DNA from: an uncultured Candidatus Saccharibacteria bacterium
GTDB taxonomy: Bacteria > Patescibacteriota > Saccharimonadia > Saccharimonadales > JAUPVS01
Reading direction: 5' to 3'
DNA length: 64,000 bases
Assembly: GCA_964410185.1 (NCBI GenBank)
Contig: CAYPFM010000003.1
Location: 150,119-214,118 of the forward strand
The notes below the pieces were generated by a model. It was not told where the DNA came from. It did not search any database and saw only the letters and a program-made list of their open reading frames with translations. A program made the position numbers and the translations under genes. Positions 61,359 through 64,000 of this stretch are shown one piece after another; position 1 is the first letter of the stretch; each line of letters opens with the position of its first letter.

Positions 61359-64000
61359 ATAACGAAGCTAACCAGTTTACCTGGTACGAAGATAGTCTTA
61401 CGGATGGATTTGCCATCCAGGTAGGCTGCGACCTTGCTGTCAGCCTTGGCCGCGCCGACTATGTCCGCTTCGCTGCTGTCGGTCGAGACACTGATTTGCG
61501 AGCGTACTTTGCCATTAATTTGCACCACGATTGTAACCGAATCGGCTACCAAATATTGTTCGTCCCATTCTGGCCATTGGCTGGTGTGGATGCTATCCTG
61601 GTGGCCAAGTTCTTGCCATAACTCTTCGGTCATGTGTGGCGCGTACGGGGCCAGTAGTTGCAATAGAGTTTCGATGCTCACCTTCCAGCTAGCACCAGCC
61701 ACAAAACCATCGGCCGCTTTAATTTTATAGAGTTCGTTCACAAACTCCATTAACGCCGCGATTGAGGTGTTAAAGCCGAAGTCGTGCATATCTTGACTGA
61801 CCTTCTTGATGGCTTTGTGTGTCGCACTGGTCAGTGCCTTGTTTTCGCCAGTGTCGGTGTTTGCCTCCAGATACTCCTGCACCAAAGTCCAAACTCGCTG
61901 CAAGAAGCGGAAGCAGCCGCCCATGCCCTCAACGCTCCAGGCCGCCGACTGGTTCCAGGGACCAATAAATAGTTCCATCAAACGGATGGCATCGGCGCCA
62001 TAGCCTTGCTCAATAATTTCATCGGGCGCGATAACGTTGCCCCAACTTTTGCTCATCTTACGGCCATCGGGGGCAAGAATCATGCCATGGTTACGCAGGG
62101 TCTTAAATGGCTCGTTGAAGTCGATCAGGCCGTCGTCGAACATAACTTTGGTCCACATCCGCGCGTACAGCAGGTGCATAACAGCGTGTTCGGCGCCACC
62201 GATATAGTCATCAACCGGCAGCCAGAACTTTACCTTCTCGGCGTCAAAGGCGGCTTGTTTGTTGTCAGGATCGGCGAAACGCAAGAAGTACCAGCTGGAA
62301 CAGGCGAAGCCGTCCATCGTGTCGGTCTCGCGCCAACCTTCAACCCAGCCATCCTGTGGCTGACCATCCTTGAATGGCTTGGTCTCGCCGGTTTCGGTGT
62401 TGAGCCAGACGTGCACCCAGTCTTCGGCCCGAGCCAACGGGCCCTTGCCGGTGCCATCAGGTTTGAAAGAATCAACTTCGGGTAGCACCACTGGTAACTG
62501 GGCAGCGACAACAGGTACAGCGACTAGTTCTTTGTCATTTTCGACTTTGGTTTGGTCTTGCTTCAGTGCATCGGTAATAAAGTCTGCTTTGGCACCAGCC
62601 ACGGCAGCTTTTTCAACCCAAATAATCGGAATCGGCGCGCCCCAATAGCGCTGACGACTAATCAGCCAGTCACGAATCTTGTAGTTAATCTTTTCCTGGC
62701 CATGTTTTTGCTTCGCCAACTCGGCCACGATTTTTTCGCGGGCTTCACTTGATGGTATGCCATCGTATTTACCAGAATTGGTCATGATTCCTTCGCCAGC
62801 ATAGGCGGTTGACCCGGTCAAAGCTTCTTCAAATTTAAGCTTGGTACCAATGCCGTGAACCTTTTCGACAACCTCGGCCTTGGTGAACCAAACTGGTTTA
62901 TTAATCTTCGCCTCTTCGGGTGCGACTTCGATGGTCTCCAGGTCAGTCAGTTCGGTGTAGGCCGTGTAAAACTTAACACGACGATTAAGCTTTTTATACT
63001 CGTGATAGAACTCGGTGTAATATGGATCACCAACCAGTCGAACGGGGCCGTGGTTGATGTAGCCTGCTTCTTCTTTCAGTTCACGATCAGCCGCTTCTTC
63101 TGGTGTTTCACCTGCCTCTATCCCGCCGGTGACATAGCTATAGGACTTGGTCTCCCAGGCAATCCGATCCAGCAACAAGTACTTGTCTTCGCTAGGGTGC
63201 TTAACAATACAGCCAACGGCATTCCGTTCAACGGTTTTAACACCTGGTCGAGGCGGAATCACCGTATCCTCATATTCAGGCAAAATCACTGACTTAATCG
63301 GCAGCTCGAACTTCTGGGCGAACTCGTAATCGCGCTCGTCGTGGGCCGGGACAGCCATGATGGCGCCAGTGCCGTAGCCGGTGAGCACGTAATCGGCAAT
63401 CCAAACTGGAATCTTTTCGTCGTTAACTGGGTTTACGACGTAGGCACCGGTAAAGACGCCAGTTTTCTCGCGGTCGGTTTCTTGGCGTTCGATGTCGGTC
63501 TTGGCGTGCGTCTGCTCAATATAAGCCTGGACGACGGCTTTTTGCTCAGGCGCAGTAATACTGTCGACCAGTGGGTGTTCGGGAGCCAAAACGACAAAGG
63601 TGGCGCCAAAAAGCGTGTCGGGGCGTGTTGTGTAGACACGCACTTTTTGTTTGGAATCAACGACTGCAAAATCAACTTCGGCACCCTTACTTTTGCCAAT
63701 CCAGTTACGCTGCATCGACTTGATTGAGTCAGACCAATCTAGATCTTCCAGGTCTTCCACCAAACGGTCGGCGTAATCAGTAATCTTAAAGAACCATTGA
63801 GCTAGCGGGATTTTTTCAACTTTGGCGCCGCTGCGGTCGGCGATGCCATTGACCACCTGCTCGTTTGCCAACACGGTTTTATCGACTGGGTCCCAGTTAA
63901 CAATTGATTCCTTGCGATAAGCCAGACCCCTCTTAAATAGAAGCGTAAAGAACCATTGGGTCCAGCGGTAGTAGTCGGGGTCGGACGAATCGATTTCGCG
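61355..64000 (-). CDS. leuS: leucyl-tRNA synthetase (N-terminus beyond the right edge) carrying an inserted Nudix domain
   Basis: The frame stays open to 64000 (..[25 protein letters not shown]). [12 protein letters not shown] editing domain, [12 protein letters not shown], KMSKS; insertion at about 62825-63262. Confidence 0.9.
   Translation of the reverse strand, partial: [881 protein letters not shown]

Follow-up and report, generated by a model that had tools for sequence, protein, structure and literature searches.

Leucyl-tRNA synthetase (LeuRS) is among the best-studied of the synthetases, and is a drug target by way of its editing site. Its CP1 editing domain carries peripheral insertions, I4b in bacterial enzymes and I4ae in eukaryal and archaeal ones, which share one location between helices α2 and α3 and border the editing pocket; the I4b loop is variable among bacteria, lies at the mouth of the pocket, and contacts the ligands bound there (PMC3747510). 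I4b takes the form of a loop, and I4ae that of an extension that includes a helix. The LeuRS described here has at this position a complete enzyme domain of 140 aa, which brings an active-site motif of its own, that of the Nudix hydrolases. The gene, leuS, occupies positions 61355-64000 on the minus strand of a 64,000-nt stretch of contig CAYPFM010000003.1 (GenBank assembly GCA_964410185.1), from an uncultured Candidatus Saccharibacteria bacterium. We refer to this whole stretch as the window; coordinates are positions in it, residue numbers are those of the 881-aa leuS fragment that it contains unless stated otherwise, and all leuS features given below are on the minus strand. The architecture extends two known kinds, the synthetase with an accessory domain and the CP1 peripheral insertion, and it is doubly nested, with the Nudix domain inside CP1 and CP1 inside the catalytic core.

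A class Ia synthetase with an extra enzyme domain has been curated, as an exceptional architecture, under the name ileS_w_GNAT (NCBIfam NF040702). This is an isoleucyl-tRNA ligase (IleRS) with an N-acetyltransferase (GNAT) domain. Both the synthetase and the added domain are different there, and NCBIfam has no model for LeuRS with Nudix, although it has this one for IleRS with GNAT. A precedent for a Nudix domain attached to an adenylyl-transfer enzyme, one that works on related nucleotides, is the bifunctional nicotinamide mononucleotide adenylyltransferase/Nudix hydrolase (NCBIfam NF003788), but this is an end-to-end fusion in an unrelated pathway, whereas the Nudix domain of the window is a nested insertion. 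The domain itself has the fold, the complete Nudix box and roughly the size of the Enterococcus faecalis MutT/nudix protein 2AZW and of the Ap4A (diadenosine tetraphosphate) and Ap6A (diadenosine hexaphosphate) hydrolases 3I7U, 4MPO, 1VC8 and 1F3Y. These are free-standing proteins of ∼20% identity, of which 2AZW is uncharacterised, while the window domain is nested in an aminoacyl-tRNA synthetase. Finally, the LeuRS of Mycoplasma mobile is a minimal enzyme with a GKDG peptide in place of the leucine-specific domain, where the window enzyme has APDGRK; the M. mobile enzyme is described only as reduced, with no added domain (PMC3643597), whereas the window LeuRS has retained CP1 and gained a domain within it.

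Alignment to Thermus thermophilus LeuRS pairs residue 240 with T. thermophilus residue 363 and residue 398 with T. thermophilus residue 375, so that 157 residues (241-397; 62810-63280) stand where the T. thermophilus enzyme has 11. This segment, delimited by the T. thermophilus and homologue alignments and supported by AlphaFold2 (AF2) and Foldseek, comprises the Nudix domain with short linkers and replaces the I4b loop. Residues 259-377 (62870-63226) match Pfam NUDIX (PF00293; E 9.3e-14, 52 bits, cut-off 21.1), and the insert searched alone scores 56 bits against the same cut-off. The Nudix box GX5EX7REUXEEXGU can be read at residues G292-Y314 (63059-63127), its final U being a tyrosine (Y314), and an aromatic pair, F331/Y332 (63005-63010), is found at +17/+18 after the box, at the X-loop position. 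The AF2 model of the insert alone, built from a homologue alignment, has a pLDDT (predicted local distance difference test) of 97.5 and a pTM (predicted template modelling score) of 0.91, with the strand-helix-strand order expected for Nudix. Foldseek against the PDB gives 551 matches at E <= 0.001, and all 50 of the 50 listed are Nudix hydrolases. The best match is 2azw (template modelling (TM) scores 0.72/0.77), followed at ∼20% identity by YmfB, Ap4A hydrolases (3i7u, 4mpo), the Ap6A hydrolase Ndx1, ADP-ribose pyrophosphatases, NUDT15 and RppH. A search of PDB sequences with a profile built from 31 inserts likewise finds 2azw (4e-12) and lupin Ap4A hydrolase (2e-10), as well as AvrM14. Judged by its sequence and its predicted structure, the insert is a genuine Nudix-fold domain, in frame within an otherwise intact LeuRS.

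An earlier note on the window, made from the sequence letters, had recognised this domain at 62825-63262. The translation of 62825-63262 (minus strand) gives exactly the peptide that it quoted, the perfect Nudix box that it placed at 63059-63127 is there to the nucleotide (residues 292-314), and its estimate of about 150 extra residues is close to the net gain of ∼146 aa in the T. thermophilus alignment. Its description of a continuous frame with the flanking LeuRS motifs intact also holds, since TTRPDT, AHDERD, KMSKS and the C-terminal domain are all present. The fold prediction that it proposed yields a Nudix fold for the insert alone, and the PF00293 match and this model set the insert apart from a normal variable LeuRS loop. 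One element of the earlier description has to be revised. The insert was thought to follow the end of CP1, but it lies within CP1, in the I4b loop, as the behaviour of the CP1 profile makes clear. PF13603 has 185 positions, and in the uncut protein only positions 1-146 are matched, by residues 98-245. When the insert is removed in silico, the match becomes contiguous over positions 1-184/185 with 246 bits, and therefore the Nudix domain is nested inside the editing domain. The motif G-x-(I/L)-x-NSG-x-x-DG, which belongs to the CP1 editing domain, places it there as well.

The N-terminal part of CP1 thus delimited spans residues 98-240 (63281-63709) and includes the T-rich motif TTRPDT (63614-63631) and AHDERD with its catalytic Asp residues (63329-63346), both read from the sequence and both invariant in 103 sequences. 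The C-terminal part, residues 398 to ∼440 (62681-62809), is defined by the spliced PF13603 match and includes helix α3. An AF2 model of the CP1 plus Nudix segment (348 aa, 103-sequence alignment) has a pLDDT of 94.0 and a pTM of 0.88. Its editing part superposes on the Streptococcus pneumoniae CP1 crystal structure with a TM of 0.93 (normalised to the target), and therefore the host editing domain is complete. In the model, helices at residues 222-230 and 417-430, corresponding to α2 and α3, flank the Nudix domain. Since S. pneumoniae numbering equals fragment numbering plus 123 (the positions of TTRPDT and of the two Asp residues give this offset), the published position of I4b identifies the loop that the Nudix domain occupies, and by this analogy and the model the domain should sit beside the mouth of the editing site.

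The remainder of the protein is that of a bacterial-type LeuRS. The frame enters at the window edge (64000), where the gene is 5'-truncated, and runs unbroken to its stop codon (61355-61357); judged against an 83%-identical homologue (P0004), the N-terminal ∼122 residues lie beyond that edge. The HIGH motif is among them and so is outside the window, its counterpart in P0004 being HVGH. Despite the missing N-terminus and the insert, TIGR00396 (leuS_bact) reaches 812 bits, the cut-off being 548, and T. thermophilus LeuRS (PDB 1h3n) is matched at E 4e-181. The KMSKS catalytic loop of the synthetic site is read at 62045-62059, and the C-terminal domain is present. The nearest named proteins are those of Candidatus Saccharimonadales/Saccharibacteria, and the gene order leuS, nusB, Nudix, rnc, rpsP, KH is common to the window and related contigs. 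The window protein is the housekeeping bacterial-type LeuRS of a Saccharibacterium, a member of the Candidate Phyla Radiation (CPR).

The architecture is common to hundreds of related public sequences. Among the 120 best LeuRS homologues of the window protein, 115 have 148-169 extra residues at the same site, flagged PF00293, and come mostly from Saccharibacteria; the remaining five have only 8-22 residues there. Over 100 independent contigs, drawn from NCBI, JGI, ENA and Logan, show the same arrangement. In a scan of species representatives (one genome per GTDB species, 80 best loci kept), 47 of the 80 loci carry the insert. By the submitters' own taxon labels, 20 of the 47 are Saccharibacteria/Saccharimonadales, three are only 'bacterium', one is from Magasanikbacteria, two are from Peribacteria, and one, a degenerate case, is labelled Gammaproteobacteria. 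The other 20 are low-GC gut metagenome-assembled genomes (MAGs), with rabbit and mouse among the named sources, labelled Bacilli, Tenericutes, Clostridium or Muribaculaceae. Nine Saccharibacteria-labelled loci among the 80 lack the insert. The LeuRS cores of the Bacilli-labelled group are 52-62% identical to a Bacillus LeuRS, versus 44-48% to the window LeuRS, and this greater nearness to Bacillus suggests that these insert carriers are probably not a matter of simple mislabelling.

An exhaustive search of 1.84 billion representatives with a profile of the insert yields 133 proteins when the threshold is E <= 1e-30 and 1272 when it is relaxed to E <= 1e-10. LeuRS motifs are present in 102 of the top 150; the others include about 30 free-standing proteins of ∼160 aa and a few of different architecture. 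A word-index search with the insert alone returns three weak free Nudix proteins only, which reflects a limit of sensitivity and not rarity, because the family was recovered when the full LeuRS served as query and when the profile was searched exhaustively. The earlier note's view of a genuine insertion and not a fusion or assembly artefact is thus borne out by recurrence in 115 of 120 homologues from many independent assemblies and in 47 of 80 representative loci. A chimeric assembly or a gene fusion is ruled out by the continuous open reading frame (ORF) and the recurring architecture. An intein was also considered and rejected: Pfam finds only NUDIX in the insert, and the junctions, SVIL|PEYE and LTGS|TAYA, have neither splice residues nor His-Asn. 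The chance that the insert is an artefact of any of these kinds (chimeric assembly, frameshifted fusion or intein-like element) is negligible, given the more than 100 independent contigs and the unbroken ORF, and the AF2 model, a single well-packed two-domain unit, also speaks against it.

Several relatives have further additions. A second CP1 loop, before the T-rich region (window ∼63650-63655, after residues 116/117), holds an ASCH domain (PF04266), an alpha/beta hydrolase (PF12695/PF00561) or an unassigned domain of ∼130 aa in P0055, P0078, P0080, P0116, P0037, P0032, P0040 and P0056, always alongside Nudix. Two or three Nudix domains are found in some LeuRSs (P0009, P0019, P0014, P0124, P0125 and P0135); in P0014 (1452 aa) there is an apparent duplicated module, an editing-domain segment plus Nudix, after the position of residue 430. 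Outside LeuRS, the insert-type Nudix domain is present twice in P0254 (1318 aa), which by eye is M17 leucyl-aminopeptidase-like with an acetyltransferase-like segment, and as a tandem repeat in the short protein P0129 (379 aa). In a MAG labelled Candidatus Peribacteria (L046), leuS reads as a 204-aa ORF in code 11, versus a 986-aa LeuRS with the Nudix insert in code 25, an indication that this genome reads UGA as a sense codon.

Over 116 insert-bearing sequences, the Nudix box is conserved as follows: G292 in 116, G293 in 115, E298 in 104 (Gln in 11), R306 in 110, E307, E310 and E311 in 116 each, and G313 in 114. W282, W371, K336 and N339 are also conserved among the inserts, and the aromatic pair is Phe in 64 and Tyr in 45 sequences at position 331, and Tyr in 81 and Phe in 24 at position 332. 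The mean pairwise identity of the inserts is ∼30%, versus ∼69% for the LeuRS core. Read from these alignments, the metal-binding and catalytic residues of the Nudix domain are under strong purifying selection while the rest of the insert diverges fast, and such divergence around a retained Glu triad is most simply that of an active hydrolase.

Insert subtypes do not track LeuRS phylogeny, the correlation between insert and core identity being only r = 0.16. P0011, for example, has an insert 75% identical to that of the window and a core only 60% identical, and in many pairs whose cores exceed 70% identity the inserts fall below 35%. One subtype is common to Saccharibacteria (P0060, L020) and the Bacilli-labelled group at 46-49% identity, about the same as the cores. 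The domain has also been lost. P0006, which has 81% core identity to the window and is the sister of P0004, is nested among insert carriers in a neighbour-joining tree (a crude one) and has only 15 aa at the site, which points to a recent loss and to an insert that LeuRS function does not need. A free-standing version of the domain is found in P0149 (163 aa; L082 3833-4324, also L083 and L084), which is 46% identical to the window insert, linkers included. Its gene lies 136 nt upstream of a leuS that carries an insert of a different subtype (29% identity), in three independent assemblies. A metagenome scan for relatives of P0149 recovered essentially its own contig only, and a word-index search P0149 itself only. 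Within 10-kb flanks of insert-less leuS genes (P0006, P0097 and P0119) there is no insert-type Nudix gene, only the different, syntenic Nudix gene between nusB and rnc.

The best explanation, to which we give a probability of roughly 0.55, is that the nested domain is an active nucleotide pyrophosphohydrolase, likely with an adenine-containing NDP-X (nucleoside-diphosphate-X) substrate, and that it is coupled to LeuRS mainly by co-expression and co-localisation on an essential protein. The polypeptide would then have three active sites, for aminoacylation, post-transfer editing and Mg2+-dependent pyrophosphate hydrolysis, with the Nudix domain packed rigidly on CP1 and acting on a small compound of this type. 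Since close relatives have lost it, the Nudix domain is not required for aminoacylation. The conserved catalytic Glu residues support Mg2+/Mn2+-dependent hydrolysis, and the adjacency of the P0149 gene to leuS (136 nt) counts as genomic linkage in its favour. As to the substrate, the leading guess, tentative and with the odds against it, is the dinucleoside polyphosphates such as Ap4A, side products of the aminoacyl-tRNA synthetases. In the cell, Ap4A comes mainly from the synthetases and is broken down by Nudix enzymes (PMC10148737). The X-loop, ∼17 residues after the Nudix box, helps to set substrate specificity, and ApnA hydrolases carry a Tyr there (PMC5389931); the conserved Phe/Tyr pair at +17/+18 offers a lead in this direction, compatible with ApnA hydrolases but not a specific signature of them.

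Other assignments gave little. The NCBIfam Nudix models (NudE, NudC, RppH; MutT) match far below their cut-offs, with best scores of 20-30 bits versus 100-260 and mainly over the Nudix box, and PADLOC returns generic sub-threshold Nudix matches only, with no defence system assigned. The motifs of the ADP-ribose, NADH and CoA subfamilies (Pro at ∼+16, SQPWPFPxS and the upstream NuCoA motif, respectively) are not seen on reading the insert sequence, and a Pro at +12 after the box is present in only 22 of the 116 sequences. Leucyl-adenylate (Leu-AMP), which the earlier note had listed with Ap4A as a possible substrate, is an acyl-phosphate and not a pyrophosphate, and so is not a typical substrate of the superfamily; on these chemical grounds we judge it unlikely.

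Several points weigh against a co-localised, adenine-directed hydrolase. No Nudix subfamily can be assigned, with the NCBIfam scores as low as they are and structural neighbours of many specificities at ∼20% identity, and one of the two X-loop aromatic positions is Phe as often as Tyr. LeuRS is not named as an Ap4A producer in the literature found, and PMC10148737 is silent on it. A diffusible substrate does not need a fused enzyme, and rigid packing is suggested by the pTM of the predicted model alone. Lastly, the exchange of subtypes (r = 0.16) and the unrelated domains inserted in relatives fit a passenger in a permissive site. On this account the domain would be an ordinary housekeeping Nudix enzyme that has settled in a permissive loop on the surface of an essential, highly expressed protein, and would be functionally unrelated to leucylation or editing. 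That is a possibility to be taken seriously, if somewhat doubtful, and the loss of the insert in several lineages nested among carriers agrees with it, as do the mismatch between insert and core in P0011 (75% and 60%), the ∼30 free-standing homologues among the top 150 representatives, and the presence of the domain inside another enzyme. It fits less well with the use of an identical site in Saccharibacteria, other CPR lineages and Bacilli-labelled MAGs, with the 102 LeuRSs among the top 150 profile matches, and with a free-standing copy that adjoins leuS; the high pTM of the two-domain model also suggests an evolved interface. The chemistry of such a passenger would in any case overlap with that of the co-localised hydrolase, the two differing only on coupling.

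The position of the domain invites another reading, in which it docks at the mouth of the editing pocket, to which the 3'-CCA end is brought, and acts on the tRNA end, removing the 3'-pyrophosphate that toxSAS toxins add to A76, or a 5' nucleotide cap, as a built-in repair activity. These toxins attach pyrophosphate to the CCA end of the tRNA and prevent charging (PMC11559606), the insert occupies I4b, a loop that contacts ligands of the editing pocket (a placement with which the AF2 secondary structure agrees), and the conserved K336/N339/R340 cluster after the X-loop could bind phosphates. Fast evolution and subtype swapping are as expected of a conflict module, and the ASCH and alpha/beta hydrolase modules in the second CP1 loop of relatives are of hydrolase type or RNA-associated. 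We nevertheless consider it unlikely: the argument is purely positional, the toxSAS literature found mentions no Nudix enzyme, and very similar domains that are free-standing or in a non-tRNA enzyme (the M17 aminopeptidase-like P0254) argue for a tRNA-independent substrate. A broader and rather improbable extension is that the LeuRS editing domain of Saccharibacteria and some other genome-reduced bacteria is a docking platform for hydrolase modules that repair damaged or toxin-modified tRNA-Leu ends, with Nudix in I4b and ASCH, alpha/beta hydrolase or unknown domains in the second loop beside the T-rich region. If true, tRNA repair or toxin immunity would be built into the synthetase, and the turnover and lateral exchange of modules would be those of an arms race. 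A non-catalytic role, in gating the editing pocket as a structural lid or nucleotide sensor, as I4ae does, or in compensating for the leucine-specific domain and zinc-binding cysteines that the window LeuRS lacks, is very improbable. Although the inserts are very divergent, the Glu triad and the Nudix-box Arg hardly vary or do not vary at all, which a purely structural role would not demand, and P0006, P0017 and P0024 are insert-less within the same cysteine-less clade, so that the insert is not needed for compensation.

The two absences just mentioned are features of the window LeuRS in their own right. The leucine-specific domain (T. thermophilus ∼580-637) is without a counterpart, and APDGR(K) is found instead at 62060-62074, just before KMSKS; it is likewise replaced in all 12 of the 12 relatives displayed at that position, and functional LeuRSs without this domain are known (PMC3643597). 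The zinc cysteines of ZN1 and of the second Cys pair (window 63827-63895 and 62366-62401) are kept in ∼110 of 121 relatives, but all are replaced in the small clade of the window protein (with P0004, P0005, P0006, P0017 and P0024). A further feature of this clade is an additional segment of ∼25 aa (fragment residues 470-495).

Downstream of leuS, the nusB-Nudix-rnc-rpsP-KH arrangement is kept in Saccharibacteria with or without the LeuRS insert. The Nudix gene in it (59668-60168, minus strand) lies between nusB and rnc and overlaps the rnc start by 14 nt (59668-59681). Its best matches are weak, to MutT1 and RppH. It had been called clearly different from the insert, and indeed the two are only 26% identical and belong to different Nudix families. 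A 135-aa ORF (60951-61358, plus strand) converges on leuS, its end overlapping the leuS stop by 4 nt. It has no NCBIfam match, and a convergent gene of ∼138 aa is found at the equivalent place in related contigs.

As far as can be told, the LeuRS-Nudix architecture is abundant in the data and flagged by automatic Pfam matches, yet undescribed. The earlier note knew of no described LeuRS of this kind, and a full-text literature search found no description of a LeuRS with a Nudix domain either, though the architecture is common, unnamed, in public data. The words tRNA and synthetase are absent from a 2017 review of the Nudix clan (PMC5389931), and in a 2026 survey of domain insertions the LeuRS editing domain is put among the insertion-exclusive ones: over 213 events, it is given 'zero instances of host function' (PMC13114784). 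Contrary to that survey, the editing domain of the window-type LeuRS does host another domain. The finding also bears on annotation, as the names given to these proteins in public records are only 'leucine--tRNA ligase' or 'class I tRNA ligase family protein'. In a major lineage of episymbiotic bacteria the insert is the rule and not the exception, and it recurs in Bacilli-labelled gut MAGs. This prevalence and recurrence probably reflect a real physiological need in organisms with small genomes, for which the candidates are the control of synthetase-derived dinucleotides such as Ap4A and, more speculatively, the repair of tRNA ends.

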